A stretch of 64,000 bases of DNA, from the NCBI GenBank assembly GCA_026770705.1, contig JANJGN010000021.1, forward strand, positions 98,084,001-98,148,000. Direction: 5' to 3'. The notes under the pieces are model-generated. The model saw nothing but the letters and a program-made list of their open reading frames with translations. It did not search any database and was not told the DNA's origin. Shown here one piece after another: positions 9,562 through 60,760 of the stretch (position 1 is its first letter; each line of letters starts with the position of its first letter). Both the position numbers and the translations under genes were made by a program. Source of the DNA: Isurus oxyrinchus (taxonomy: Eukaryota).

Positions 9562-11237
9562 AGGCCCCAGCTATGCCTCTCTCTTTATGGGGTATGTGGA
9601 ACATTCCTTGTTCCAGTCCTACTCCGGCCCCCTTCCACAACTCTTTCTCCGGTACATCGATGATTACTTCGGTGCTGCTTCGTGCTCTCGTCGGGACTTG
9701 GAAAAATGTATTAATTTTGCTTCCAATCTCCACCCCTCCATCACTTTCATGTCGTCCATCTCTGACACTTCCCTTCCCTTCCTTGACCTCGCTGTCTCAA
9801 TCGCTGGTGATAGACTGTCCACCAATATCCATTACAAGCTTACCGACTCCTGCAGCTACCTCGACTACAGCTCCTCACACCCCGCTTCCTGTAAGGACTC
9901 CATCCCATTCTCTCAGTTCCTTCGCCTCCATCGCACCTGTTCTGTGATGCTACCTTCAAAAACAATTCCTCTGACATGTCCTCCTTCTTCCTTAACCGAG
10001 GTTTTCCACCCACGGTCATTGACAGGGCCCTCAACCGTGTCAGTCCATCTCCCGTGCATCCACCCTCACACCTTCTCCTCCCTCCCAGAAACATGAGAGG
10101 GTCCCCCTTGTCCTCACTTATCACCCCACCAGCCTCCGCTATCAAAGGATCATCCTCCGCCTCTTCCGCCAACTCCAGCATGATGCCACTACCAAACACA
10201 TCTTCCCTTCACACCCACTATCGGCATTCCATAGGGATCGTTCCCTCCGGGACACCCTGATCCACTCCTCCATCACCCCCTACTCCTCAACCCCCACCTC
10301 TGGCACCACCCCATTCCCATGCAAAAGATGTAACACCTGCCCCTTCACTTCCTCTCTCCTCACCATCCAAGGGCCCAAACACTCCTTTCAAGTGAAGCAG
10401 CAGTTCACTTGCATTTCCCCCAACTTAGTGCACTGCCTTCGTTGCTCCCAGTGCGGTTTCCTCTACATTGGAGAGACCAAACGTAAACTGGGCGACCACT
10501 TTGCAGAACACCTGTGATCTGTCCGCAAGAATGACCCAAACCTCTCTGTCACTTGCCATTTCAACACTCCAACCTGCTCACTTGTCCACATGTCTGTCCT
10601 TGGCTTGCTGCATTGTTCCAGTGAAGCCCAACGCAAACTGGAGGAACAACACCTCATCTCCCGACTAGGCACTTTACAGCCTTCTGGACTGAATATTGAA
10701 TTCAACAACTTTAGATAGGTCTTGACCTCCCTCCTCCATCCCCACCCCTTTCTGTTTCTTCCCCCTTCCTTTTGTTTTTTTCCAATAAATTTCCCACCTA
10801 TTTCCATTATTTTAAAATATTTTGAAATATTTTATGCTCCCCCACCCCCACTAGAGCTATAGCTTGAGTGCCCTACCATCCATTCTTAATTAGCACATTC
10901 GTTTAGATAATATCACCAACTTCGACACCTATGTGTTCTTTTGTTCTGCTGTCTGTGACATCTTTTGATGATCTGCTTCTATCACTGCTTTTGCCTACAA
11001 CCACACCACACCCTCCACTTCTCTCCCACCACCCAACACCCCCTCCCCAACCCCACCACCTTAAACCAGCTTATATTTCACCCCTTCCTGGGATTCACCT
11101 AGTTCTGTCAAAGGGTCATGAGGACTCGAAACGTGAACTCTTTTCTGCTGCACCGATGCTGCCAGACCTGCTGAGTTTTTCCAGGTAATTCTGTTTTTGT
11201 TTTGGATTTCCAACATCCGCAGTTTTTTGTTTTTATC
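9562..11237 (+). mobile_element. 5'-truncated Penelope-like element (RT, GIY-YIG endonuclease, 3' pseudo-LTR)
   Basis: GPSYASLFMGYVE, FLRYIDDYF, LPFLDL, YLDYSSSHP, SIPFSQFLRL and GIY-YIG CSQCGFLYIGETKRKLGDHFAEHL. Two 1-nt frameshifts (~9946, ~10045) and an in-frame TGA at ~10515. The 3' tail ends ...gtttttatc at 11237. Confidence 0.92.
11101..11139 (+). ncRNA. Degenerate minimal hammerhead-ribozyme motif in the Penelope pseudo-LTR
   Basis: agtt-ctgtcaaa-gggtc-atgag-gactc-gaaac-gtg-aact. Stems I and II pair, but a core G and the GUC cleavage triplet are mutated. Confidence 0.55.
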
Positions 11238-14608: not shown

Positions 14609-15502
14609 TCAATTACTAAAGTGAGCCAGAGGCTGCCTGACTATATTCTTTAATTCTTCTCCGAATTTACGCGGAGAAACTCTATAAAAAAATGTATTTG
14701 TGCAAGAACTCAAACTCCTAAGCCTATATCCCCACTGTTCAACAATGGTGCTGGGGTGGTTGTAATCTGTCTCTAGAAATGTTATATCTGTAAATTGCAC
14801 AAGTATAAAAATATAAAAACTACCACCCATAACAGTAAGAAACTGCTAGGAATAGGGACAAGTAAAATTATATATTTCCTGCGGTTCTCCATCTCCGCAT
14901 CAGTTTGGTGATGAATATCAGTGTTTCCTCTGAGTCCACTTCGAACTCTATTGGCCAGTATAATATATCTGATTGTCAGAAAATTTAGAAGTAATATCAT
15001 CAAAGTGGCGCAAACGGAATTACAATGGTTTCCATCCACAGAAATGCTATCCATGCTGGTAAGGTGTAGAAACGTGATTTCACACAGCAGTGCCACGGTT
15101 GATTGTCAATTACTTCTCGAGGCTCATACATGAAGTAGATTGGAATATTTTCAAATATGCATAGGAGAATCACTAATGTTGGCACCATAGCTGCAGTTTT
15201 GTCTGTACAATATTTCTTTTGTAACGTTTGGTGGCAAATAGCAATAAATCTATCAAAAGTAAACCCCACCTTTAACCAAACAGAGCTATCAATGGAAGTA
15301 AACAGCAGAGCGAAATTGAGACTGCAAACAGGTGTGTAATTCAAGAATGAACGTGGAAAATATTTCCCTTTAGTTACATACAGCATTATTTGAAATATCA
15401 GGACCATGAGATCAGCTGCTAACTTGGTCACCAGATAATGGGTGATGCATTTTTACAGCCCATATTTTCCACGGGAAAGAATAACGATTGTCACCAAATT
15501 AT
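14609..15502 (-). pseudogene. GPR139-like: GPR139-like class A GPCR pseudogene, copy A, exon 2
   Basis: NLVTIVILSRGK..., LAADL, SVWLKVGFTFDRFIAIC, ENIP, DAEMENRRK, FLLLW, SSCTNTFFY. Three frameshifts (~15457, ~15003, ~14810). The acceptor reads ttgcAA instead of AG. Confidence 0.92.
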
Positions 15503-16554
15503 TTGCAAGATACATTAGTAAATGAAAAACTATCTTTCCCGTTAGAGGATTATCAACTGACAGTTCAGTGTAAGACATTTAATGAATACGTTTTCTGGTT
15601 AGCCAAACCTCACACTATTCCCCCAATATGCCGGATAAGTTTAGCAATTCTGGAAGTAACTAACAGTTTGCTGAGCTGCATCAAAGGGAAATGGAAAATC
15701 AGCAGTCCTTGGCATAATTAGGCGATATCCAGTCGCAACATTTATAATTTGCATCGATCCCCTGGATTACCAGGATCTTTCATCGAAGTTGTGACGAGGG
15801 AATGGGAGAAGTGCCTTCGAAAATGAGCCGCGGGAACCTGAGTTCTGCCGTGAAGAGGGAACTTGGGCTCTTTCCTGTTTTAAATGTGTAGGCTTTTAAT
15901 ATGAGCAGGCTGCTTTGGGTGGAAATGTTCCTAGGGCAGGAATGCTGAAAAATAGATATCCCATAATCCGTCTAAATAATGCTGGGCTGACACTGAGTTC
16001 AATTGAAATCAACAAAACTGCAAGTCATAAGCGGAGGTATATGCAAATAAGTAAGATGGGTTCCTATCCGTAAGTGGGAATGAATATATAACAGTTATGA
16101 ATCTAGGTGTTGACAAAATCTCCCTTTTCCGCCCATTCAGATCAATGAAAGCGGCAATATTAGCCTTACGCAAATGATGTAATTCTGAATGTTTCTATCA
16201 CCTTATTGTTGACCCTGGGGATACAGATGAGACCCTCATCCGCCACTCCCTACCAGACTGATGAAAAGGGCAATACCTTTGCTGTGTTACGGGTGTGAAC
16301 TGGAATTTATAAAAACGACAGTACAACTGTGTCCGGAGTTACTTGATTATCAGTCTTCCTATGTATTTTAATATTTCACAACGGTTAGTGGCTCTAAATT
16401 AATGTGGCGTATGTATATGACGCACTTAAATGCATCAGGTTGCACTGCAAATATTAATGCTAGAAATTTGCCCGCTTTCATGAGCAAACCTAGCGCCAAC
16501 ATAGAACAGCCATTGTAACCACGCTTTTCCATAGTCAGAAACATAACAACAATG

Positions 16555-16653
16555 TTCTGATAATGAGACATACGGGCTCGAAACGTTAAATATGTTCCTC
16601 TCCGCAGATGCTGTCATGCCTGCTGAGTTTTTCCAGCTATTTTTGTTTTGTTT
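16555..16653 (+). repeat. Isolated old Penelope pseudo-LTR/hammerhead tail fragment in the copy A intron
   Basis: ttctgataa...ctcgaaacgtt...gatgctg...cctgctgagtttttccag, homologous to 11101-11200. Confidence 0.75.
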
Positions 16654-16738
16654 AAGAAATATCATTACACCGGCAAGAGTGTAACTGAAAAAAAAATCTA
16701 TAATAAGGAGAATTATTAACTGATGATGAGAGACTTTC

Positions 16739-22356: not shown

Positions 22357-23287
22357 TTATTTAATTTGTTGAAACCATTTACAATAAGAAAATGAATATC
22401 GTATCAGAATCAATAGAATATAAATCGCATTTTGCAGTTCTTCCCTGAATTTCCTCTGAGAAACTGAATAAATAAACGTGTTTGTGCAGCAACTCAGGCT
22501 CTTCAGGATAAATCCAGATTATTCGAGGATGGTAAAAGCGTAGTTCAAACTTGTTTCTGAAAATTGAGAATCGGTAAATTGTACACATACAAGGTGGGTT
22601 ACAAATACTACCACCCACAAAAGTAAAAAAATCCCGGCTATAGCAAGCAATAATTCCATTGATTTTCTTCGGTTCTCCATCTCTGCGTCATTGCGTTTCA
22701 CACCATAGTTGGTTCCGTGGAGTCCCCGCCTCACTCTATTGGCCAGGACAATGTGCCTGATGGTCAAAGCATTCAGCAAGAAAATCGAAACATTGGGATA
22801 AAGGGGGTTAAAAGTGTGCCAATCAAAAATGCTACGCATAGGGGCGTTGTATACAAGCTTGATATTACGTAGCAGTACCATGGTAGGCTGCTAATTATCG
22901 GCCGAGGTTCATATGCAAAGTAGATTGGAACACATTCTAAAATGCTCAGGGGACACAGCATTGTTATATCCACAGTTGCAGTTTTAGCTGTGTAATACTT
23001 TGTTCGAAGCTTCTGACAACACATGGCTATAAATCGATCAAAGGTGAACGCGACAGTTAACCAGACAGAACTATAAATGGAGAAAAAAATTAAGGCGATG
23101 TTAACACGGCAAATGGGGGTGTAGTTCAGAAGTGAGTATGAAAAATAAACGTCTTTAACCTCATACAGGATTACATCAAATATCAGGACGAATAGATCCG
23201 CTGTGGCCATGGTCAACAAATATCGAGTGATACATTTGGAGAGCTTGCAACGTCCACGAGAGAGAATTACAATTGTCACCAGATTAT
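22357..23287 (-). pseudogene. GPR139-like: GPR139-like class A GPCR pseudogene, copy B, exon 2
   Basis: Intact acceptor ttcttttcAG at 23288. NLVTIVILSRGRCKLSKCITRYL, MATADL, FTFDRFIAMC, DAEMENRRKS, LSCCTNTFIY. One 1-nt frameshift at ~22785 and a premature TAA at 22519-22521 (Q in paralogs). Confidence 0.92.
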
Positions 23288-23499
23288 CTGAAAAGAAAGG
23301 GGAATCAAATTACTAATTCTCTCCAACTGAAAGTAGGGTCAGCCGACAGTTCTTTGGACGAAAATCCATGCTCACTGTCTTTTTTTGTTTTGATCAAACC
23401 TATGTGAAGTGCAGAATCCAATTTCGGAATCGGAAGTACTATTTCAAAATATGGCAATGACACGGACTTGGAGACTGTCAGTATTGCAGAGAACCGAAA

Positions 23500-25019: not shown

Positions 25020-26180
25020 CATCATCAGGGTAGTGTCCTCGGCCTAACCATCTCAGCCGCTTCATCAATAACCATCCTCCATCATAACGTCAGAAGTGGG
25101 GATGTTCGCTGATGACTGCATAATGTTCAGCACGATTCGTGTCTCCTCAGGTACTGAAGGAATCCATGTACAAAATGCAGCAAGACGTCGACAATATCGA
25201 GGCTTGGGCTGACATGTGGCAAGTTACATTCCCGCCACACAAGTGCCAGGCAATGACTATCTCGAACAAGAGAGAGTTCAACCATCACTCCATGGCATTG
25301 CCACTGCTGAATCCCCCATTACCAACACGCTGGGCGTTACCATTGACCAGGAACTGAACTGGAATCGTCATGTAAATATTGTGCCTACAAGTGCAGATTA
25401 GAGACTGGGAATCGCGCGACGAGTAACTCAACTCCTGTATACCCAAAACTGTTTTAGCATCTATAATGCACAATCAGGAATCTAGGACAACGCAGCCTGT
25501 TTGATTGTCACCACATGCACAAACATTCATTCCCACCAACAAACAGAGTAGCAGCAGTACGTACCATCTACAAGATGGTCTGCAGGAATTCACCAAGACT
25601 TCTTGGGCAGGACTTTCCATATCCACGACCACTACCACCTAGAAGGACAAGGGCAGCAGAGAGATGGGGCCATCATTTATTACCCATCCCTACTTCGAGG
25701 GCATTTAACAGTCAACCACATTGCTGGTCTGGAGTCATGTTTAGGCCAGGCCAGATAAAGACAGCGTGTTTCCCTCCCTAAAGGGAATTTTTGATTCGGA
25801 TGAATGTTTATATCAATGGTTTCATGGTCATCGGTAGACTGTTATTCCCAAATTTGTATTGTATTCAAATGCAAACATCTGATCTGGCAGAGTTAGAACC
25901 CGGGGCCCCAGAACATTACCCTGGGTACCTGGATTACTAGTCCAGCGCTAATACCACTACCCTATCGCCTCCCCTTACATACCACCGTTCCTTCACTGTC
26001 GCTGGGCCAAAATCCTGGAACTCTCTCCCTAACAGCACAGAGGGTGTTCCTACACGGCGTGAACTGCAGCGGCTCAAGAAGGCGGCTGACCACCAAGTTC
26101 TCAAGGAAAACTAGGGATGAGCAATAAATGCTGGCCCAGCCTATGAAGCCCATATGCCGTGAATGAATTCTAAAAAAATG
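25020..26180 (+). mobile_element. HER1 LINE 3' portion interrupted by an antisense HE1 SINE
   Basis: QGSVLG, MFADDC and AWADMWQVTF.PHKCQ, plus the conserved 3' tail ...agggatgagcaataaatgctggcc...tgaatgaat. Confidence 0.85.
25668..25974 (-). mobile_element. HE1 SINE
   Basis: Minus strand has a tRNA-derived head (gtagtggtatt...ggactagtaatccag...ggttctaac), the body gactccagacc.gcaatgtggttgact and the HER1-shared tail agggatgggtaataaatg. Confidence 0.85.
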
Positions 26181-29100: not shown

Positions 29101-29921
29101 TCGTGCTGGGATGTCTTTAATTCCAATACCATCAATGACTGCAGAGAGACACGTGTTTTTTTTTTGGTCAGGAAGCAGCAGGATTGCTTTGATACAAAGG
29201 ATTAAGTGATCAACGAACGGATTAATCACAAATGCAAGACTTTCTGCATTGGCAGAAATAATCTTCTGCTGCCTGAGTAGCAAAGTGATCATGGAAATGA
29301 AAGCTGCCAAGGCTTGCTAGAGGAAAGTGCTCAAGGTCTTTCCAAACAAAAAAAAATGTTCATGAGAATCATTTCATCTTCATCCAGGCACCTGGGGAGT
29401 TAGGCCGAACTCGGAGCTGCCAAAGACAATGGAGTTGATAAAAGCCATCATATGAATTAAAAATGACAAAGTAGCAGGAGGTGATAGAATATCCACTGAA
29501 ACATTTAAGCACGGAGCACAGGAACTGTTATGGGGAAGAAAGTGCGTAAGAAGTTATGGTAAGGGAAAATTTATTGAAAAGGGAAGAATTACTTAAAATC
29601 TCGAAGCAACCAGGCCTACCAAGCACATTAACAGTTAAAGGACACCAGGTGAACCTTGCACAGCGTTAATGCCTGTAAGCAACAAAAAGGCTTTGGGAAA
29701 GGTACTGGAGTCCGTGGATGGCAATAACATAGATTAAATGTGCTCTTCAACAGGTAGGAGAAGGATGATGGTCCTAGCTTAGATAGGAGGGAATGTCTCT
29801 GCCTGGGTGAAAATAGGGACATATGATGCATGTTACCAGAGATGTCTGTTTAATGTAAACCTATATGCTGACGAGGTCGCAATCTGGAAACTGTTCTTCT
29901 ACATGACCAATAATTTAGCAG

Positions 29922-30167
29922 ATAAAAACAAAGAAAACTGCGGATGCTGGAAATCCAAAACAAAAACAGAATTACCTGGAAAAACTCAGCAGGTCTGGCA
30001 GCATCGGCGGAGAAGAAAAGAGTTGACGTTTCGAGTCTTCATGACCCTTCGACAGAACTTGACAAGTTCTGTCGAAGGGTCATGAAGACTCGAAACGTCA
30101 ACTCTTTTCTTCTCCGCCGATGCTGCCAGACCTGCTGAGTTTTTCCAGGTAATTCTGTTTTTGTTTT
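29922..30167. mobile_element. Penelope pseudo-LTR fold-back insertion (perfect 105-bp inverted repeat plus 35-nt tail) with a 14-bp target-site duplication
   Basis: Arms 29957-30061 and 30063-30167 are exact reverse complements around a single A at 30062. caataatttagcag occurs at 29908-29921 and 30168-30181. Confidence 0.95.
30065..30103 (+). ncRNA. Minimal type I hammerhead ribozyme-like motif (mirror copy on the minus strand at 30021-30059)
   Basis: AGUU-CUGUCGAA-GGGUC-AUGAA-GACUC-GAAA-C-GUC-AACU. Stem I AGUU/AACU, stem II GGGUC/GACUC, palindromic ACGU stem III, GUC cleavage triplet. The core has U where the canonical CUGA has A. Confidence 0.65.
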
Positions 30168-31009
30168 CAATAATTTAGCAGGTTGCTATCACAAGCTGCA
30201 TTGAGATGGTTCTCCCCTTGCAACTGCTCGAATAAACGATAGTGACCAGTAACTGAGATCCGTTTTTCAAAGTGGCCACAACCGTTTGCCCGCAACCTTG
30301 GTGTTAACATTCGAGCCCAATTGATTGGTGTTGCAGATCTGTAATGAAGAGGATCTGAATGCTCTCAAAAGCACCATGATCGTGGGAATCTTCAAGAGAG
30401 TGGAGAAATCTTATGCTCCGATTTACAAAGGCATCTCCCTGTTGTATTGATTGTAAGATAATAGCAAGACCCCTTTTGAAACGACTTATTAGGTTTGCTG
30501 CTCCAGTCACTTCCTCAATATTAATGTAGGATTTGGCAAGCAACAGCAAGGTCAACATAATTGTTACAGCTCGCCTAATATAAGAAAAATGCTATGAACA
30601 AGATCAATCATTCTACACAATGTTTTTTGACATGGAAAACGGACCTCAACGTTGTAAATTATGAGGCACTCTGAAAGAAAGTGCTGAAATATGGATGTCC
30701 TTCAAAATTCGTCATCACCTTTTGCCTGCATCATGATGACATGCCAGCAGTCATACTTAACAGCTGATCCATTGCAGCCCGTTTTAGATTAATATCGGTA
30801 TGAAACATAGTTAGTGCCCTCCACCATCAACAACCGGAAACTAAAAGAAATTGTTTTTGCAATCTTTCTTGCTGCCATCACCGTCTGACAAGAGACAATC
30901 TCCCTGCTGGAGTCGAGCATATTTATTGAATGCACGGTAAACGATTTCATCTCACATCACTCCAGTCAACAACTAAGAGCACCCCGATATCAGCCATTGA
31001 GCTCCAAGG

Positions 31010-31745
31010 TGCTAATTACACTGGACTACGAGAGAGACTCCAACCATCTCCCCTTGATGATCAATGGAATTACCACCAATGAGTCCCCCAGTGTCAACAT
31101 CCTCGCGGTTACCATTGACCAGAAACTGAACTGGACTAGCCATATAAACACAGTAGCTACAAGAGGAGGCCAATGGCTAGCAATCATGCCAGGAGTAACT
31201 CACCTCCTAACTTCTGAAAGCCTGTCTGCCATCTAAAAGACATAAGTCAGGAGGTTGATGGAATTCCCTACATTTGCCTGAATGAATGCAGCTCCCATAG
31301 CGCTCAAGAAGTTTGACACCATGCAGGTCAAAGCATCCCACTTGATTGGCACTACATCCACAAACATTCAGCCCTATACCACCAACGCACAGTAGCAACA
31401 GTGTGTACCATCTACTAGGTGCACTGCAGGAGTTCACCAACAATCCTTTGACAGCACCTACTAAACCACGACCACCACTGTCTAGAAGGACATGGGCGGC
31501 AGGTCGATGTGAACACTGCCACCACCTCCAAGTCACTTACCATTCTGGCTTGGAACTATATCACCATTCCTTCACTGTTGCCGGGTCAAAATCCATTCAT
31601 AACAGCACTATGTGTGTACCTACCCCACGTGGACTGCTGCAGTTCAAGAAGACAGCTCACTACAACCTTTTCAAGACCAACTAGGGATGGACAATAAAGG
31701 CTGGCCTAGGTAGCAAAGCCCACATCCCATAAATGAATTTTACAA
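31010..31745 (+). mobile_element. HER1 LINE 3' fragment nested in the RTE element
   Basis: NILAVTIDQKLNWTSHINTVA and the HER1 tail ending cccacatcccataaatgaat. Confidence 0.85.
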
Positions 31746-37419: not shown

Positions 37420-40400
37420 GAGAAACATAGGAGCAGAAGTAGGCCATTCAGCCCCTCGAGGGTGCTGCACCATTCAAATTGATGTTGGCTCATCATCTCT
37501 CTCGACGCAAGTTTTTTGTGCTTTCCCCAAATCCCTAGATGCCATTTGATTCTGGCATTCTATCGATCTCTGTCTTCAGCATACTCAATGACTGTGTTTT
37601 CACAGTCCCCCGGGGTGGAGAATTTCAAATACTAAAGTTATCTCCTCATCTCACTCCTAAGAGACTTGTCCCTTACTCTAAAACTATAATGCCTGCTTCT
37701 AGAACACCAAGCCAGGGGAAACAACCTTTCTTCATCTACTCTGCCTGGCCCTTTAAGAAAGTTTCAAGTTTTAATTAGATCATTTTCAATTCTCCTGAAA
37801 TCTAGAGAAAACAATCCCACTCTCTTCAATTTATGCCAATAGGAGAGTTCCGCCATCCTAGGAATTAGCCTGGTGAACTTCCTCTGCACTCCCTCTATGG
37901 TATATATATGTTCCTTAAGTGAGGGGACCAAAACTGTATTCAATACCCCTCGTGAAGTCTAAGCAATTTTCTATACAATTGAAGTAAGGCATCTTTACTC
38001 CAGTATTTAAAATCCTCTTGCAAGAAATGCAATAATTGCTTGCTGCACCTGCATAATCGCCTTCACTGACTTTTGAAGGACACCCTTCTTGACATCAGCA
38101 CACCTGTCTCTCGCCATTTAATAAGTAGTCTACGACCCGATTGCTCCAAACGAAGTGGATAATATCACACTGATCCACGTTACATTCTATTTGTCATACC
38201 CTTGCCCACTCAGTAATCCTAACAAATCCTCTTGAAGCCGCTTTGTGTTGACCTCATAACCTATTCCCACGTAGCCTTTGTCATCAGAAAAAGTGGAATT
38301 GTTACAAAATTGCCACATGCAATCATTAATGTAGAATGTGAATAGCCTAGGCCCAAGTACTGATCCTTGTGGTGTCCCAATGGTCAAAGGCTGCCAACCT
38401 GAGAATGAAGCATTTATTCCTACTCTCCATTTTCTCTCCGTTAACAAATTTTCAATCCATGCTAGAATATTACCCCCTAACTCATGTGTTGTAATTGTGT
38501 TTACTGACTTGTGTGGAAACTTATCAAAAACCTTCCAAACAGCCAAATGAAGCACACCCACTTCCCCAACCCCCCATATCCATTCTGTTGGTAGCGTCCT
38601 CAGAAAACTCCAACAGGATTGTCAGGCATGATTTTCATTAGAAATCCATGTTGACTCTGCCCAAACAAATCAGTATTTTCTACGTTTTCTAGATATTCCA
38701 TCCGTTATGATAGAGTCCAGCATGTTCCTTCCTATTGACTTCAGGCAAACAGACCTATAGGCCCTCATTTTCCATCTTCCACCTTTCTGAAGCATTGGGG
38801 TTGTCTTTGCATGTTTCCTTCCACTCTACAGGGCCATTCCATTATCTGTAGAACTGTGAAAGGTGATCACCAATGCATCCACTATTTCTGTAACCACCTC
38901 TTTCTACATTCTTGGACGTAGATCATCGGTCCAAGAGATTAAGCAAATTTCAGGCACGTTAATTTCTGAAACATTTCTTTTTTTACACACGCTAATTCCT
39001 TCAGCCCCTCATTCTCACTCGTCCCTTGGCTTGCTCTTACCCATTGGAGATTCATTATACCTTCGTCCATGAAGGCAGACATAAAATAAGTATTTATCTT
39101 CTCTTTCCTTTCTCTATTCTCCATTAAACATTCTCCTGTCTCTGCCTGAATTGACGGACATTTGTCCTTGCCAATTCTTTCCTTTTTTCCATGCCAATAG
39201 AAGATTTTGTAGTCCAGTTTTATATGTCTCGCTAGTTTACATTCATATTCAATTCTACCTCACTTTTTCAGTTTCCTAGTCTTCCTTTACTAAATTTTAA
39301 AATGCCCCCAATCCTCAGGCTTACAACGCTTTTTCAGAATCTCATCAGCCTCTTCGTTTGACCTAATACAATCATTAACATCCGTGCTTAGTCACGATTT
39401 ACTCACTTTTGGAATTTTGTGCTCAAAAGAAATGTATGTTTGCTGTAAAGCGCATATTAGTTCTTTAATTGTAACCCACTGTCTGCCTACTGCCATACCA
39501 TTTAATGTGTTCACCCATTCCATTGTAACCAACCTTCATAACTGAATTTGGTTAGTGTTAAGACCCTAGCTTTGGAATTAATCCAATAGTTTTCAAACTT
39601 ATTGAAATATTTGATCTTATTATGTCACTCTTCCTAAAGGAATCTTTTACAACAAGATTTTTATTAGCCCTGTCCTATTGCAAAATGTAAGATCTAAAAC
39701 GGCTTCTTCTCTAATTAGTTCCTCGACATACTGCTCTAGAAAACCATCTCGGACACAATCCACGAATTCGTCCTCCACACCATTAATGTTCAACATATTT
39801 ACTAGTAAAGCAATAAGTGGAAGTGTCCTATGATTACTGAATTACCCTTGTTCCATGCACCCCAAGTTTGTTCATTTAAACCGTGCCCTGCGTTATAGCT
39901 ATGACTTGGTGGGCTGTAAACAACTCCAGCTAATGTTCAACAAAAAACAGAAAATGCTGGAAAAGTTCAGCAGGCCTGACAGTACCTGTGCAGAGAGAAA
40001 AAAGTTAAAGTTTCGAGACCGGATGACCCTTCTTCAGAGCTGAATAGAAGTTACAATGTGATGCAATTTATAGTGTTTGAAGGGGTTGGGGAAGGTGGAG
40101 CTGGATACAAGGCCAGTGATACGTGGAGAAAAAAGAGAGAGATTGACAAAGATGCCATGAACTAAACGACAAAGGTATGGTTATTGCTAGTGCTGTTGGC
40201 CTCTGTTGTTTCTCAGCTTCACCCAAGCTTATTCTCCATTCTGTTCTTCAGATGAAAGATCATCTCTCACTAATCTACTGGTGTCAACTTACTGTCGGCG
40301 CCACCGCACCACCTTTTCCCTTTTGACTGTCCATCCTAAATGAGAAAATTCCTTAAATATTCAGTTGCCAGCCTTCGTCACCCTACCGCCACATTTATCG

Positions 40401-43789: not shown

Positions 43790-44760
43790 TGTAATAACAG
43801 GAAAAAGTGTCAGAGGTTCGATAACATTAATGTAAACCTACCTAGTCTTCAGAATCTCAGCAAATTGACATAGGGACTGACAAGGTATTAGAGGTGTTGG
43901 CAGGCTTAAAAGGAGGCAAATCTGCAGGTCAAGATGATTTATGTCCCAGACTTCTGAGGGAGGCAAGGGAGGAGATCGCAGGGGCTCTGACCCAAATTTT
44001 TAATTCCTCTCTGGCCACGGGGCAGGTGCCAGATGACTGGAGAACAGTTAATGTGGTTCCACTGTTTAAAAAGGGTTGTAGAGATAAGCAAGTGAACTAC
44101 AAGCCTGTGAGTCCCACATCAGTGGTAGGGAAACTATTCGAGAAAATTCTGAAGGAGAGAACCTATCTCCACTTGGAGAGGGAAGCTTTGATCAGGGGTA
44201 GTCACCATGGTTTTGTCAGAAGGAGGTCATGCCTAACAAATTTGATTGATTTTTTTGAGGAGGTGACCAGGTGTGTAGATGAGGGTAGTGGTGTTAATAT
44301 AGTTTGTATGTATTCCAGCAAAGCCTTTGACAAGGTCCCACATGGGAGTCTTATAAAGAAGGCAATGCACAAGGGATACAGGGTAATTTGTAAGGTGGAT
44401 TCAAAATTGACTTAGTTCTATGATACAGAGGGAGATGACGGAGGATACTTTAGTGACATAGAAGCCAGTGTCCAGTGGTGTAATACAGCGATCTGTGCTG
44501 GGTCCCCTATTATTTGTCATTGATATAAACGACACCATGTGGTGGGTAGGATTAGTGACTTTGTGGATGAAACAATGATTGTCCGGGTGGTTAACATGGA
44601 AGTGGAGTGCCTTGGCCTACAGGAAGATACAGATGCGATGGTCAGATGGGCAGATAAGGGGCGGATGGAATTTAACCCTGAAAAGTGTGAGGTTACACAA
44701 TTTGGAAGGTGTAATTTGACAAGGAAGTATTCAATGAACGTCTATATGCTCTCCAGCGTG
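43790..44760 (+). mobile_element. CR1 LINE RT fragment in the copy C intron
   Basis: ORF 43894-44415: KSAGQDDLCPRLLRE, VPDDWRTVNVVPLFKKG, HGFVRRRSCLTNL, KAFDKVPH. Confidence 0.9.
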
Positions 44761-45093
44761 ACTCGACAATTTGCAGATAAATAATGCTGATCATAATTAG
44801 CCTAATATTTTCTTGTTTTCGAAATAATGTTTCACAACTATTAAGAATCGCACCCTGAAGGAATATTCGATGCTCTATTGGTTGTAAAACGCATTATTCG
44901 ACATTCTACGATCATGAAAGTAGCTGGAGAAATGCGAGTCTTTCTTTTCTTTTTAACAACTTGGTGAAAGATAAAGGGAGACAATTGAATGTCAGAAAGA
45001 AACAAATCATGAATTTTCATATAATTTTCATTATCTCTTGACCCTTCCTTAGATACGGTTTAAGGTAGTAATTACATTTTCTCCTTCTTGCAA

Positions 45094-45987
45094 CGAATTT
45101 GGTCACAATCATCATTCTCTCTCGTTGCAAGTGTGGTCTCTCCAAATGTTACCCGTTACCCGGTAGCCATGGCAGGGGCTGACATCATGATCGTAATATT
45201 TGAAGTGATACTCTATGAGATTAAGGATGCGTACTTTCCTTATACGTTCCTAAACTATACTCCCATTTGTAGTCTCAATATTGCACTGCTTTTTGTTTCC
45301 ATTGATTGTTCTGTCTGGCTAACAGTTGCGTTCACCTTCGATCGATTTGTCGCTATTTGTTGCCAAATTCTGCAAACAAAATATTGCACTTCCCAAACTG
45401 CTGCTGTAGTTATAATAGTTGTGTGTTCAATATGTGGTTTGCAAAATATTCCAATCTATTTTATTTATGAACCACGGGAATTCGTTGGCAATATCCCATT
45501 GTCCTGTTATGTTAAGTCAATCTTCTACACCTCGCCCATTTGGAAAGCATTTTTCTGGTTGGAAACCTTCCTAACTCCATTTCTTCCATTTGTTCTTATT
45601 CTACTGCTCAATGGCCTGACCACAAGGCACATATTGATGGCGAACAGAATCAGAAGTGGACTACGAGGTAACAGCAATGTTCAGAATAAAAATGACCCAG
45701 AGATGAACAACCGCCAGAAGTCGATGATTTTATTGCTCACTATCTCAGGCAATTTTATACTATTATGGATGGTAATTTTCGTATGTTTCCTATGTGTGCA
45801 GTTTGGCGATGTGCAAATTTTTGAAGCTAATTATAACGACCCTTTCACGGTAATAGAACAATCTGGGTATATGCTGAGCTGTTTGAGCTCATGCATGAAC
45901 ACGTTTATATATGCAGTGTCACAGAGCAAATTCAGAGAGCAACTGAAGAATATCATTAAGCATGCCTGGCTCCCTTTACGAATATAA
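45094..45987 (+). pseudogene. GPR139-like: GPR139-like class A GPCR, copy C exon 2 (probable recent pseudogene)
   Basis: Exon 2 in the exon 1 frame reads ANLVTIIILSRCKCGLSKC, then a 2-nt deletion (~45148) shifts the frame. The acceptor is ttgcAA at 45092-45093. Downstream TM2-TM7 is open: MAGADI, FTFDRFVAIC, QNIP, DPEMNNRQKS, FILLW, SSCMNTFIY. Confidence 0.88.
45169..45987 (+). CDS. GPR139-like: Residual intact 272-aa TM2-TM7 reading frame of GPR139-like copy C
   Basis: Open from ATG 45169 to TAA 45987 with AATAAA at 45991-45996. Whether it is translated is unknown. Confidence 0.4.
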   Translation: MAGADIMIVIFEVILYEIKDAYFPYTFLNYTPICSLNIALLFVSIDCSVWLTVAFTFDRFVAICCQILQTKYCTSQTAAVVIIVVCSICGLQNIPIYFIYEPREFVGNIPLSCYVKSIFYTSPIWKAFFWLETFLTPFLPFVLILLLNGLTTRHILMANRIRSGLRGNSNVQNKNDPEMNNRQKSMILLLTISGNFILLWMVIFVCFLCVQFGDVQIFEANYNDPFTVIEQSGYMLSCLSSCMNTFIYAVSQSKFREQLKNIIKHAWLPLRI

Positions 45988-47300: not shown

Positions 47301-47389
47301 AAGGGTCATGAGGACTCGAAACGTCAACTCTTTTCTTCTCCGCCGATGCTGCAGGACCTGCTGAGTTTTTCCAGGTAATTCTGTTTTTA
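47301..47389 (+). mobile_element. 89-bp Penelope hammerhead-tail insertion with a 7-bp target-site duplication
   Basis: Near-identical to the palindrome arm. ttccaga occurs at 47294-47300 and 47390-47396. Confidence 0.85.
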
Positions 47390-47396
47390 TTCCAGA

Positions 47397-50694: not shown

Positions 50695-52550
50695 AAAGGC
50701 ATAGAAACTAGGAGCAGGATTAGGCCTGTCGGCCCTTCGAGCCTGCTCCGCCATTCATTATGATCATGGCTGATCACCCATATCAATAGCCTACTCCTGC
50801 GTTCTCCCCAAGAGCTATATCTAATTCCTTCTTGAAAACGGACAACGTTTTGGCCTCAACTGCTTTCTGTGGTAGTGAATTCCATCGGCTCACCACTCGC
50901 TGGGTGAGGAAAGTTCTCCTCATCTCAGTACTAAATGGTCTACCTCGTATCCTCAGACTGTGATCCCTGGCTTTGGACTCGCCCACCATCTGGAACATCC
51001 TCCTTGCATTTACCCTGTCTAGTCCTGTCAGAATTTTATACATTTCGATCAGGTCCCCCTTCATTCTTCTGAACTCCAGCGAATAAAATCCTAACCGATT
51101 CAAGTTCTCCTCGGATGTCAGTCCCTCCATCCGAGGAATCAGTTAGGTAAATCTTCGCTGCTCTCCCTGTAAAGCATGAGCATCCTTCCTCAGCTAAGTA
51201 GACCAACACTGCACACAATAATCCATGTGTGGTCCCACCAAAGCCCTGTACAACTGCAACAAGGCATGCCTGTTCCTGTACTCTAATCCTCCGCTAGGAA
51301 GGCCAACATACCATTTGACTTCTTTACCGCCTGCTGCTCCTGCATGCTTATCTTCAGCGACTGGTGTAAGAGGAAACCCATGTCTCGTTGCACATTCCCC
51401 TCCCTCAAATTATAACCATTCAGATAACAACCTGCTTTCCTGTTTTTGTGACCAAAGTCGATAACCTCACATTTATCCATATTATACTACGTCTGCCAGT
51501 CATGTACCCACTGACTCAGCTTGTCCAAATCACGCTGAAGCTTCTCTGCATCCTCCTCACATCTTACCATCCCACCCAGATTTGTGTCATTTGCAAATTT
51601 GGAGACGTTACATTTAGTTCCTTCATCTAAATCATACGTTATCCCACTAGTCACTGTCCGCCATTCGGAAAAATACCCTGTTATTCCTACTCTTTGTTTC
51701 GTGTCTGCCCACCAGTTTTCTATCCATCTCAATACACTACCCCCAATCCCACGTGCTTTAATTTTACACGCTAATCTCTGATCTGGGGCTTTGTCGAAAG
51801 CCTTCTTGAAGTCCAAATAAACCATAACCACTGGTTCCCCCTCATCAAATCTATTAGTTGCATTCTCGAAAGATTCCAGCAGATTTGTCAAGCATGATTT
51901 CCCTTTTATAAATCCATGCTGACTCTGTCCTATTCTGACACTGTTTTCCACATGCTTAGCTGTTAAATCTTTATAATAGACTCTAGAATTTTCCCTACTG
52001 CCGACGTCAAGCTGAATGGTCTATAATTCCCTATTTCTCCCTGCCTCCTTTTTTGAATGGTTGGATTATATTAGCTACCCTCCAATATTTAGGAACTGTT
52101 CCAGAGCCTTTAGAATCTCGGAAGATGAACAACAATGCATCCACTATTTCTAGAACCACTTCCTTAAGTACTCTGGGATGTAGATTATCAGGTCCTGCAG
52201 ATTTATTGGCATTCAATCCCATCAATTTCCCCAACACCATTTCCGTACTAGTATTGATTCCTTTCAGTTCCTCCGTCTCACAAAACCCCGTGTTCCTCAA
52301 TATTGCTGTTATGTTATTTGTGTCCTGCTTTGTGAAGACAGACAAAAGTATGTATTTATTTGGTCAGCCATTCATTTTTCCCCATTATAAATTCCCCTGT
52401 GTCTGACTGTAAGCGGTCTACTTTGATCTTCACCAACCTTTTTCCCTTCACATGTCTAGAGAAACATTTACAGTCAATTTTTATGTTCCCACAAGCTTGA
52501 TCTCATAGCCAATTTTCCTCTTCTTAATCAACCGATTGGTCCTCCTCTGT
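50695..52550 (-). mobile_element. Relatively young CR1 LINE 3' 1.9 kb
   Basis: KSAGPDNLHPRVLKE, QHGFIKGKSCLTNLLE, YLDFKKAFDK, SKFANDT and WNSLPQKAVEA. The 3' end is at catagaaactaggagcagg. Confidence 0.92.
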
Positions 52551-54654: not shown

Positions 54655-54865
54655 TTATGACTTGGAACGTTCTCACCATTCCTTTGCCGCCGCTGTGTCA
54701 AAGTAATGGAACACCTTACCTAATAGCATTACGGGTATAGCTAGACCACATGGACAACAGTGGATCTGGAGGGCAGCTCACCACCACATTCTCAAGGGCA
54801 GTTAGTGATGGGCAACAAATGCTGGCCTACGCAGCAATTTTCACAACCTATAAAAGAAAAAGAAA
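54655..54865 (+). mobile_element. HER1 3' tail fragment
   Basis: cagctcaccaccacattctcaagggcagttag.gatgggcaacaaatgctggcc. Confidence 0.75.
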
Positions 54866-54989
54866 AGAAATTACCCAACATACCCAACCATGACCCAAAT
54901 ACAAAACCCTTACCAAACTACCAAGCTCGACACGTCTACGCATCCGCAGAGTCAACAATTCGTTTTTTGACCAAACTTTCAACATCCGA

Positions 54990-57934: not shown

Positions 57935-59367
57935 ACCAGGCATTTACCCAGCAGTGTGGAAAATTGGCCAGATGTTCCCTGCATACAAAAAGCAGCACAA
58001 AACTAAACTGCTAATTACCGCGCCATCAATCGACTCTTGATCATCAGCAAAGTGATGGAAGAGGTCATCAACGGTGCCATCAAGCGGCACTTGCGTCACA
58101 ATAACCTTCTCACTGCTGCTTAGTTTGGGTTCTGCTAGGGCGACTGAGCTCCTTACCTTATTATAGCCTTGGTTCAAGTATAGACAAGAGCAGAACTTCA
58201 GAGATGATGTGAGAGAGACTGCCCTTGACATAAAGGCACAATTTAAACGATGGTGGCATCAAGGACGCCTAGAAAAAAACCGAGTCAATGGAAATAAGGG
58301 GGAAAACTCTCTGTTGGTTGGGGTCATATCTAGCACAAAAGAAGATGGCTATGGATGTTAGAGGTCAATCATCTCTGTTCTAGGACATCACTGCAGAAGT
58401 TCCTCAGGGTAGGGCCCTTGGCCCTACCCTCTTCAGCTGCTTGATTAATGATCTTCTTTCCATCATAAGGTCTAAAGCGAGGATATTCGCTGACGTTCAG
58501 CACCATTCACGACTCCTCAAACACTGAAGCAGTACATGTACAAATGCAGGAGGACCTGGACAATATCCAGGCTTGGGCTGACAAGTAGCAAATAACATTC
58601 GCGCCACACAAGTACTAGGCAATGACCATCTCCAACAAGGGAGTATCTAACCATCATGCATTGAAATTCATTGGCATTACCATCATGGAATCCATCAATA
58701 TCCTCAACCTAGGGATTATACTTCACCAGAAACTGAACTGGATTAGCCATATAAATACGGTAGCTATAATAGCAGGTCAGAGTCTAGGAATCATGTACAG
58801 AGTAACTCACCTTCTGACTCCCAAAGCCTGTCCACGATCCACAAGGCACAAGTCAGGAGCATGATTGAATACTTCTCACTTGCCTGGTTGAGTGCAGCGC
58901 CTACAACATTCAAGAAGCTTGACACATCCAGGGCAAAGCACGCCACTTTTTAGCACCCCATCCACAAACATTCACCTCCTCCACCACCAGCGCACATTAG
59001 CAGTGTGTACCATCTACAAGGTGCATTGCACGAACTCACCACCCTCCTTTGACAGCAGCTTCCAAACACTCGACCACTGCCATCCAGAAGGACCAGGGCA
59101 GCAGACAGATGGGAACACCACCACCTGCAAGTTCCCTTCTAAGCCACTCATCATCCTGACTTGGAAACATATCGCCGTTCCTTCACTATTGTTACGTTAA
59201 AATCCTGGTACTCCCTCCCTAACAACACTGTGGGCGTTCCTAAACCACATGGACTGCAATGGTTCAAGAAAGCAACTCACCACCAGCTGCGGAAAGGCAG
59301 TTGATGGGTGGGCAATAAATGCTGGCCGAGGCAGTGGCTCCCACATCCCATGAATTAATTTAAAAAG
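57935..59367 (+). mobile_element. HER1 LINE RT and 3' tail
   Basis: NYRAINRLLIISKVME, FGFC, ALDIKAQF, VPQGRALGP and IFAD, plus the full tail ending cacatcccatgaatt. Confidence 0.9.
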
Positions 59368-59379
59368 GCATCAGAATTA

Positions 59380-60760
59380 CATCCGTAGGAGATCAGCAGA
59401 TGCTCTATTGTGGCCCTGATGCTTGTATGGCTCTATTTGCATGTTTCTCTGTCGGCCTGGACAACCTCACAGGTGTCATTAGTTATAGTTTCAGTGGTTA
59501 ATCTGCCTCACCATGTAGTCTCCCTTCAATGAATCTGGACAACTGAAAAGGTGTGACATCTGTGAGTCCCTAAAGATGTCCGAGTTGTGACTGCTGCGCT
59601 GTTACCTGGCACACAAACATAGGACCAGCCAATTCTATTGGGACACAAGCTGCACATTGATTGAGTGGAAGTCCTTTATGTTCATGAGGGCGCACGGCTA
59701 TCCAGCTGGATCCTTATTGGCTAGTTACGTGCAGTCAATCGTTCCCTGCACCCGAGGGAATACGGCAATCGCTGCAAATCCTCGGGCTCTATGCGTTTTC
59801 CTTTGGGCATCCCGCATGAAGAAAATGTTACTCGCGGCCGTTTGAAGCATTGCATCTGTGCAGATCTTGATGCAATATGTGTAGCAGTCTGTGTTATCCC
59901 AATGAGGTCTCCACAGGCTGCCTGGAATGAACCTGTTGTGAAGAAGTAAAGTGCTACTATCGCCTTCAACGTGAGAGGCATGGGGTGACTTCCAAGGCAG
60001 TTGGCTGAGATATTCGCTGCGAGCATTTCACAAAGTGATGTAAAATTGACCCTTGAAATTCTGAGGCTTCTTTTGGAATGCGCCTTGCTTCGCTACAGTT
60101 AGTTAAATCTCTGCCTGCATAATTGTGGCGCAATATAAGATCGTCTGCGTCACCATTGAGCTGTTCTGGGTTCTCCTTACCCTCGCGGTCTGACGCTGCG
60201 CTGTCCTCTTCCTGAAAATGTAGCACACTGAAGCCCCCTGTGTTCCCTTCTTCTTAACACCAATCTCCTCCTCCTCCTATTCCTTCTCTCCTCACTCGAG
60301 AATGTGTCTCTAAATAAGACCACAGTTCCCAAATGTTACAGAAACTTCTTACCCCTGGGTAAGAGACAGGACAATAATCAATCAAAAGTCCACACTAACA
60401 GAAGGATGATTCCTCCTCATCAATATATGTCCAAAATGTCACTCTGTTCATTCACGCGAGCACTTCTGAAGTCAATGAAGTGTTAACTGCAAAGCAGAGT
60501 ATCTGGTCTCAGCTGCAGTTTTAAAACCCGCCTAAATATGATTGGTCAATGATAAACGGATTCCCTACCTGCTGCGTACCTCATCCTGAAAGTATATTTT
60601 TGCCTTCTGAACGTATTATAGCGGTGAGCTGGGTTGTTAATGACCTTAATTGGCTTCTGAATTGCAAATTAAATAATGCAAGCACTTTTCAGGCTTCGTG
60701 ACCGGCACACATACGGTATTATCACAAACCGGCATGATGACATCATGAACGGCGCCCTAC
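59380..60760 (-). mobile_element. Harbinger/PIF element, 5' half of a HARBI1-like transposase
   Basis: ALYFFTTGSFQAACGDLIGITQ and FPRVQGTIDCT*..KDPAG...FHSINVQLV. Confidence 0.85.

Follow-up and report, generated by a model that had tools for sequence, protein, structure and literature searches.

The insertion at positions 29908-30181 of the analysed stretch of Isurus oxyrinchus DNA (64,000 nucleotides of GenBank assembly GCA_026770705.1, contig JANJGN010000021.1, positions 98,084,001 to 98,148,000 of the forward strand; hereafter the window) is a coding-free pair of head-to-head 5' pseudo-LTR (pLTR) ends of a Penelope-like retrotransposon. Thousands of palindromes of this kind are present in the genome, and the two arms of each come nearly always from the same source. 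We think it probable, with some reserve, that the two nicks in the target each serve as primer for reverse transcription of a single uncleaved RNA from two internal sites, and that the resulting cDNA ends are then joined.

In the window sequence, the segments 29957-30061 and 30063-30167 are exact reverse complements of 105 bp each around A30062, and the left side alone carries a 35-nt tail (29922-29956). Comparison with the parent element assigned the left, tailed arm (29957-30062, minus strand) to pLTR positions 103 to -3 and the right, tail-less arm (30063-30167, plus strand) to positions -2 to 103. The tail, also on the minus strand, corresponds to pLTR positions 104-138, and the parent copies L096-L103 have the same sequence after the arm. 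The central A30062 is the parent element's own base at pLTR position -3 and not a spacer; since the right arm begins at -2, the centre is a blunt join of two templated ends. The outer end of the tail would represent the outer start site of reverse transcription, and the outer end of the right arm the inner start site. An earlier, sequence-only reading of the window had described the exact 105-bp arms, the one-sided 35-nt tail and a genuine 14-bp target-site duplication (TSD), and had proposed a coding-free insertion of Penelope origin. All of this holds. A parent with reverse transcriptase (RT) and GIY-YIG endonuclease carries the same arm and tail, and only the first 100-140 nt of the parent RNA are present in the insertion. 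The stub is probably dead on arrival and functionless.

The left and right TSD copies, at 29908-29921 and 30168-30181 (both plus strand), match exactly over 14 bp, cannot be extended on either side and are the two occurrences of this 14-mer in the window. The host site is an older dispersed repeat (29800-29921 plus 30168-30290), for which 40 matches were scored among 1,282 candidates. A 26-bp stretch precedes the right-flank sequence in 18 of the 19 host-repeat paralogues read and is missing from the window copy. The window copy lacks these 26 bp, and the duplicated 14-mer therefore straddles a deletion junction that is private to it; the deletion is flanked by microhomology, lies at the insertion point and is older than the insertion. 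Among the sister palindromes, 115 of 127 have a TSD of at least 11 bp, which measures 13-15 bp in 94 of them, and sharing of more than 9 bp was found in 0 of 629 shuffled flank pairs. The TSD of 29908-30181 is a genuine duplication, beyond chance. The interiors of the TSDs are 70% A+T. Five large public runs (X19-X23) diverge by ~3% in the unique flanks, for which they probably represent a related species, and their contigs break in the flanking host repeat; the fit of one contig from X19, with the same divergence and probable origin, ends exactly at the TSD end.

A copy of the parent is found in the window itself at 9563-11237 (plus strand). It is 5'-truncated and frameshifted, and consists of the remains of RT and GIY-YIG, the 3' UTR, and the arm and tail at 11101-11237; a Pfam scan of these RT and endonuclease remains in the window yielded nothing relevant. 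The parent is a 3.3-kb unit coding for RT plus, at the C-terminal end, a GIY-YIG endonuclease, with the arm and tail sitting just upstream of the ATG. Eight long-ORF relatives were fetched, six of which (L096-L098, L100, L101 and L103) have the arm both before and after the ORF, ~3.3 kb apart, and in L096 the ATG lies 34 nt past the tail end. A frame of 479 aa in L082 matched RVT_1 (E 4.9e-7) and GIY-YIG (E 5.1e-4, just under Pfam's cut-off). Both domains were also found in L096, in two different frames, and L055, L057 and L063 have the RT and GIY-YIG motifs in one frame with the arm at the end. In the four long-ORF loci checked frame by frame, out of the eight fetched with a frameshifted query, the two motifs are not found together in a single frame. 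The ORFs of L096-L098 and L100 span 816-817 codons from stop to stop and leave the endonuclease frame soon after the RT domain; this frame loss is probably an effect of selection by the frameshifted query, since in-frame copies exist. Overall, the family has the characters of EN+ Penelope-like elements, namely an ORF with RT and C-terminal GIY-YIG, direct and inverted partial-tandem pLTRs, a one-sided tail and a TSD. A Cys-rich stretch of the CxxxCxxC / CxxCxxC type precedes the GIY-YIG motif. According to the accessible portion of PMC8557442, a zinc-finger-like linker between RT and endonuclease is common to Neptune and Nematis, and the Cys-rich linker suggests, at the level of sequence, that the parent belongs to one of these two clades.

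Longer head-to-head pairs of the family have one tailed end in four of four cases (L047/48, L062/63, L067/68 and L075), and 1,643 arms retain one of two native upstream sequences. The window also has three arms without a palindromic partner or of greater age: a solo tail-less arm with the G allele and no mirror copy at 47301-47391 (plus strand, 95.6% identity), an older diverged solo arm at 16553-16655 (plus strand, 83% over 78 nt), and an older related arm at 39943-40041 (minus strand, 76% identity) in which hammerhead core position 6 is still the canonical A. Apart from this family, a frame at 45064-45987 (plus strand) matched 7tm_1 (E 2.5e-18), and together with similar frames at 15000-15452 and 22519-23309 (both minus strand) it forms a cluster of GPCR-like genes or pseudogenes of the rhodopsin family, apparently without introns. 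A further repeat family (D1, D3-D6 and D10), which we take to be SINE- or LINE-tail-like, has several dispersed copies at 25173-26175, 31028-31745, 54655-54866 and 58542-59366. The open frames at 38187-38621 (minus strand), 43846-44415 (plus strand), 51487-52020 (minus strand) and 59721-60092 (minus strand) resemble CR1-type LINE RT fragments and a Harbinger-like transposase fragment.

A DNA search of the 4.98-Gb genome scored 40 of 1,373 candidates, which correspond to the window locus and 39 other whole copies with 96-100% identity. Each of the 30 copies read has its own TSD, except for L002 and L003, which have a common one. Exact-pattern counts over the whole genome yielded 2,821, 5,875 and 8,155 + 348 + 3 = 8,506 palindromes, the last being a lower bound, and the control patterns read backwards gave 0 matches. 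In each palindrome, the initial 100-140 nt of the 3.3-kb parent are present twice, head to head. With at least 8,506 such palindromes in the genome, the locus is not a rare but an ordinary one, and its architecture of inverted pLTR, one-sided tail and TSD has already been published. Tandem amplification has carried the element along at G000:C4:91.59-91.78 Mb, where eleven copies of one asymmetric palindrome are found, several of them ~4 kb apart; L002 and L003, 2.7 kb apart and with an identical TSD, are a smaller case of the same kind.

The variants in the arms bear directly on their origin. Where the two arms of the palindrome have A, the window copies at 11117 and 47307 have G. The arm pairs counted are A/A in 700 loci, G/G in 4,771 and mixed in 111, compared to 1,306 mixed pairs expected under random pairing. 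Moreover, a two-site haplotype is carried by both arms in 348 loci and by one arm in 3, with ~670 one-arm loci expected. A TSD is present in just one of these 3 loci, L273, where three subfamily sites distinguish the two arms. A same source for the two arms, with rare exceptions, is strongly supported by these counts, and the earlier proposal of one event rather than two insertions holds. The argument for templating that the sequence-only reading had drawn from the A variant does not survive, since the A allele, with its 700 A/A loci, marks a subfamily, which was the very outcome named there as fatal to it. The arms are identical in 32 of 40 A/A loci, compared to 29 of 50 G/G or core-selected loci; arm-specific changes accumulate with age, which disfavours ongoing arm-to-arm conversion. 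As to the insertion having been called very young, the near-identity of arms among the A/A loci indicates a young subfamily, and it is at the subfamily level that the age is demonstrated. A few variants common to both arms occurred once only in the sample.

A C>G change at pLTR position 9 (window positions 30073 and 30051) is present on one arm in 106 loci and on both arms in 76, compared to 15 one-arm loci for a control, the mirror-image change at the adjacent base. In the one-arm loci read, it resides on the tailed arm in 20 of 30 and on the tail-less arm in 10 of 30. Position 9 corresponds to the free position 7 of the hammerhead core. The excess may reflect an RT error hot spot, a DNA hot spot or a template switch; an origin as arm hybrids was rejected, because the change is unlinked to the tail haplotype of G/G loci and 0 of the 30 loci read belong to the youngest subfamily. 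Two further hybrids, L271 and L272 (two-tail / no-tail), were dropped as signs of two-RNA priming for want of a TSD.

The one-sided tail is nearly invariant. From 161 parsed palindromes, 29 picked by whole-length similarity and 5 picked otherwise were set aside, leaving 127 loci unbiased for the tail, 37 of which had been chosen for a mixed A/G allele. Exactly one arm is tailed in 127 of 127 loci, and likewise in 43 of 45, 10 of 10 and 29 of 30 loci of further sets. The long arm ends at pLTR positions 135-138 in 118 of the 127 loci, and the short arm at 99-107 in 83, with a full range of 38-113. Five loci with two tails or no tail were seen, four of which have no TSD and look like rearrangements; the fifth, L226, has a 15-bp TSD without a tail and is a true no-tail insertion. 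The locus L332 (G000:C2:16094445-16097494) is a palindrome with mutually inverted flanks, without tail or TSD, and may be a larger fold-back rearrangement or an assembly artefact.

At the palindrome centres, 172 junctions were collected and 9 were dropped for too little match. In the remaining 163, both arms stop at about -9 to +8, mostly -4 to +2, and the centres fall into 58 with microhomology of 1-5 nt, 23 blunt joins and 82 insertions; perfect palindromes without a loop account for 18. The tailed arm reaches further in at 71 junctions, the tail-less arm at 47, and the two are equal at 45, in a set that pools upstream variants and in which single-base calls can be due to chance. Mirror-image centre classes are both present (11 vs 7, 8 vs 8 and 3 vs 2). 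A pattern search additionally retrieved 542 loci in which one arm is ~15-38 nt short at the centre. Among the first 30 of these, the shortening affects the tailed arm in 24 (including L304, with a tail that ends at 123) and the tail-less arm in 5, and one locus is tail-free, a bias of 24 of 29 (p=0.0005). The centre statistics are thus opposed, 71:47 in favour of the tailed arm at small scale and 24:5 against it at larger scale. Loci sharing one haplotype have many different centres and inner-arm ends, and therefore the palindrome was not moved as a unit but rebuilt at each insertion.

Each arm contains a minimal-hammerhead-like motif, one at 30065-30103 (plus strand) with a predicted cut after 30099, and a minus-strand copy at 30021-30059 with a predicted cut between 30025 and 30024. 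Both were mapped by hand against the motif descriptions in the accessible part of PMC4209133. The motif is composed of a 4-bp helix I, a U replacing A6, a bulged A, a 5-bp helix II with the A/G variant in its loop, and a palindromic 4-nt stand-in for helix III. Compared by hand with minimal type I hammerheads, it has their helix I/II geometry, GAAA, UH cut site and palindromic 15.2-16.2, and departs from the canonical CUGANGA core in having U at position 6, a feature of the 5,875 palindromes counted with that core. The presence of the motif on both strands, as claimed from the sequence alone, is thereby confirmed for a minimal-hammerhead-like form with a non-canonical core (A6U). An Rfam search of the window reported no hammerhead at the gathering score, and at E<=10 its matches were confined to generic microRNA hairpins and chance similarities. 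In the monomer, helix II is part of the minimum free energy fold, and the full hammerhead fold scores +0.8 kcal/mol. An A6C change leaves low but detectable hammerhead activity, according to the available text of PMC3088659. The arm pair folds as a hairpin at -209.9 kcal/mol, and a read-through transcript from either side would get the antisense arm first, so that the motif is predicted to be buried in a perfect hairpin. Transcription of the locus, a cruciform in its DNA and endo-siRNAs, the last two suggested in the sequence-only reading, are unsupported by the data analysed and would be hypothetical.

Inspection by eye of the first 50 of 647 and the first 100 of 542 short-centre junctions revealed no clear pile-up at the predicted cut site; their positions are scattered and coincide with microhomologies. 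Hammerhead cleavage was rejected as the origin of the inner ends, since the arms end ~35 nt upstream of the cut site. From these upstream ends and the absence of a pile-up in the junctions inspected, we infer that uncut RNA served as template. An upstream motif resembling a second cut site occurs in only one of the two upstream types.

In LINE-1 twin priming, both target nicks prime on one RNA, the junction shows microhomology and the TSD is kept; each cDNA is copied from a different part of the RNA, resulting in an inversion. By contrast, the arms of the Penelope palindrome cover the same part of the RNA, resulting in an inverted duplication with fixed starts. We propose that the endonuclease would cut both strands ~14 bp apart, after which the two 3'-OH ends would prime on one RNA, at pLTR positions ~138 and ~103 respectively, the tail being the distance between the two starts. 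Both cDNAs would extend until they reach a shared end point around -4 to +2, which is probably the 5' end of the RNA, and the leading tail-less cDNA would finish more reliably than the trailing tailed one. The two cDNA 3' ends would then be end-joined, via blunt ends, microhomologies of 1-5 nt or short insertions, with subsequent fill-in. If priming took place in the 3' pLTR, longer ORF-bearing copies with the same one-tail pattern would result.

In vitro, both target strands are nicked and extended by a Penelope protein, which begins reverse transcription at two internal positions delimiting the tail and takes RNA that has not been cleaved as its template (PMC11167929, as far as its available text goes). 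These activities, combined with one source, one tail and two free centre ends, make two-nick priming on one RNA the simplest account. Against it stands the finding, in the same portion of that paper, of no strand difference in the start site. Two loci are also exceptions to twin priming on one RNA, namely L226, with a TSD and no tail, and L273, with a TSD and arms of two subfamilies. The evidence is read from finished insertions, from which the steps of twin priming are deduced, and one RNA molecule and two RNAs of one locus are indistinguishable by haplotype sharing. A stronger version, to which we give an even chance, is that twin priming is obligatory, with an enzyme of two active sites cutting 14 bp apart and starting on a single RNA at points 35 nt from each other. 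Two hallmarks of the class that have long lacked an explanation, the tail and the inverted pLTR, would then be one footprint, the palindromes an in vivo record of it, and the most active young subfamily would use a weakened, uncut A6U ribozyme. In the open-licence literature, as represented by titles and the beginnings of abstracts, we found no published twin-priming account for Penelope elements or such mini-palindromes.

Self-priming or fold-back, in which one cDNA snaps back and is copied into the mirror arm, seems unlikely to us as the origin of the palindromes. Self-priming on an antisense template was proposed for inverted pLTRs (PMC3846280, in the part accessible), and it agrees with source haplotypes almost perfectly common to both arms; the tailed arm is also cut in 24 of 30 larger central truncations, as if it were a snap-back copy of the tail-less arm. 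However, if the tailed cDNA snapped back, the tail-less arm should never reach further, yet it does in 47 of 163 and in 24 of 30 loci, whereas the opposite pattern is expected from snap-back of the tail-less cDNA, although the tailed arm is the further-reaching one at 71 of 163 junctions. The 18 of 163 centres that are perfect palindromes without a loop also argue against fold-back, as does, weakly, the position-9 C>G found on one arm in 106 loci compared to 15 for the control. The version that survives best has two priming sites, in which the tail-less cDNA folds back and its copy switches to a short tail cDNA. Central deletion after insertion, by cruciform repair, could blur a fold-back origin. 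Of the earlier idea that one arm was copied from the other, the single template is strongly supported, but fold-back and conversion are disfavoured by the centre data. More doubtful still is twin priming by an asymmetric enzyme dimer with two RNA molecules, usually from the same active locus. Its best witness is L273, flanked by a TSD and with arms differing at three subfamily sites, and matching arms would likewise be expected if a single locus were active in bursts within one cell. Nevertheless, there is 1 TSD-flanked hybrid compared to 348 matched loci, though L273 shows that the subfamilies are available together, and the dimer needs an extra rule for the near-constant single tail.

That the palindrome is a non-autonomous mobile unit (MITE- or retrozyme-like) spreading as a whole, or that its arms are homogenised by conversion, we consider very improbable. 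Thousands of near-identical copies, and a few variants common to both arms that occurred a single time in the sample, are in favour of these readings; the many centres and inner-arm ends within one haplotype, the asymmetric ends and the lack of head-to-tail arrays largely refute it, and the build-up of arm-specific changes with age (32 of 40 A/A loci versus 29 of 50 with identical arms) speaks against conversion. An artefact of assembly or library fold-back, for which the sister locus L332 with its inverted flanks may be an example, is hardly credible for the window palindrome, given the unique flanks on both sides, the TSD over a private deletion junction, the one-sided tail, and the fact that loci numbering in the thousands each have a TSD of their own and arms that differ in keeping with age. 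Twin priming on one RNA remains our preferred reading.

The window palindrome resembles the inverted-pLTR insertions of EN+ elements such as Pen2a_Av (available parts of PMC3846280; scheme in PMC8557442), which likewise have head-to-head pLTRs and a TSD around the insert. In Pen2a_Av-type insertions, too, one pLTR is shorter by a tail of 30-40 nt, the pLTR bears a hammerhead and the parent encodes RT and GIY-YIG (PMC3846280, same portion). Unlike these, the window palindrome has no ORF between the repeats and only the first 100-140 nt of the RNA, and its TSDs are 13-15 bp long compared to 8-10 bp in Adineta. It also differs from what that text describes in its copy number of at least 8,506, and in arm haplotypes that favour two primings over the self-priming proposed there. 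The Anolis Poseidon element PAc (PMC11167929, available text) similarly has two internal RT starts bounding the tail, as would be the case here. PAc also nicks and extends both strands, uses an uncleaved template and prefers AT-rich targets, the first two of which are deduced for the shark palindromes. In PAc, however, the hammerhead and the starts lie in the ORF, whereas the hammerhead and the deduced starts lie here in the 5' UTR (ATG 34 nt past the tail), and the parent in the shark window differs from PAc in its CxxCxxC-type linker, as in Neptune and Nematis. In the same text, no inverted products are reported for PAc in vitro.

The motif shares with metazoan Penelope minimal type I hammerheads, as given in the accessible part of PMC4209133, the short helix I, the bulged base before helix II, the G10.1-C11.1 pair, the palindromic 15.2-16.2 and the absence of helix III. 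That source describes motif pairs on opposite strands, 100-700 bp apart; the motif here differs from those motifs in its U6 core and its 5-bp helix II, and its two copies face apart and would pair with each other. Non-LTR retrozymes (bioRxiv 10.64898/2026.07.22.740005, available portion) are likewise coding-free, hammerhead-bearing and derived from Penelope-like pLTRs, but are head-to-tail tandems with a hammerhead per unit, whereas the inverted pair is rebuilt at each insertion. An identity as a non-LTR retrozyme was rejected, because the pair is head-to-head and the centres vary among copies of one haplotype. Similarly, a MITE or other non-autonomous DNA transposon was rejected on account of the one-sided tail, the short-arm end at 38-113, the variable centre and the RT-bearing parent.

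The origin of the inverted repeats and of the one-sided tail in Penelope-like elements has been left open in the accessible portions of PMC8557442 and PMC11167929. The counts obtained here, namely 348 matched loci against a single TSD-flanked hybrid, exactly one tailed arm in 127 of 127 loci and a cut tailed arm in 24 of 30, narrow the options for the mechanism, and the genome-wide counts yield a direct prediction for the existing in vitro Penelope system. In addition, more than 8,500 perfect palindromes of 200 bp in one genome constitute a resource for palindrome stability and dsRNA load.
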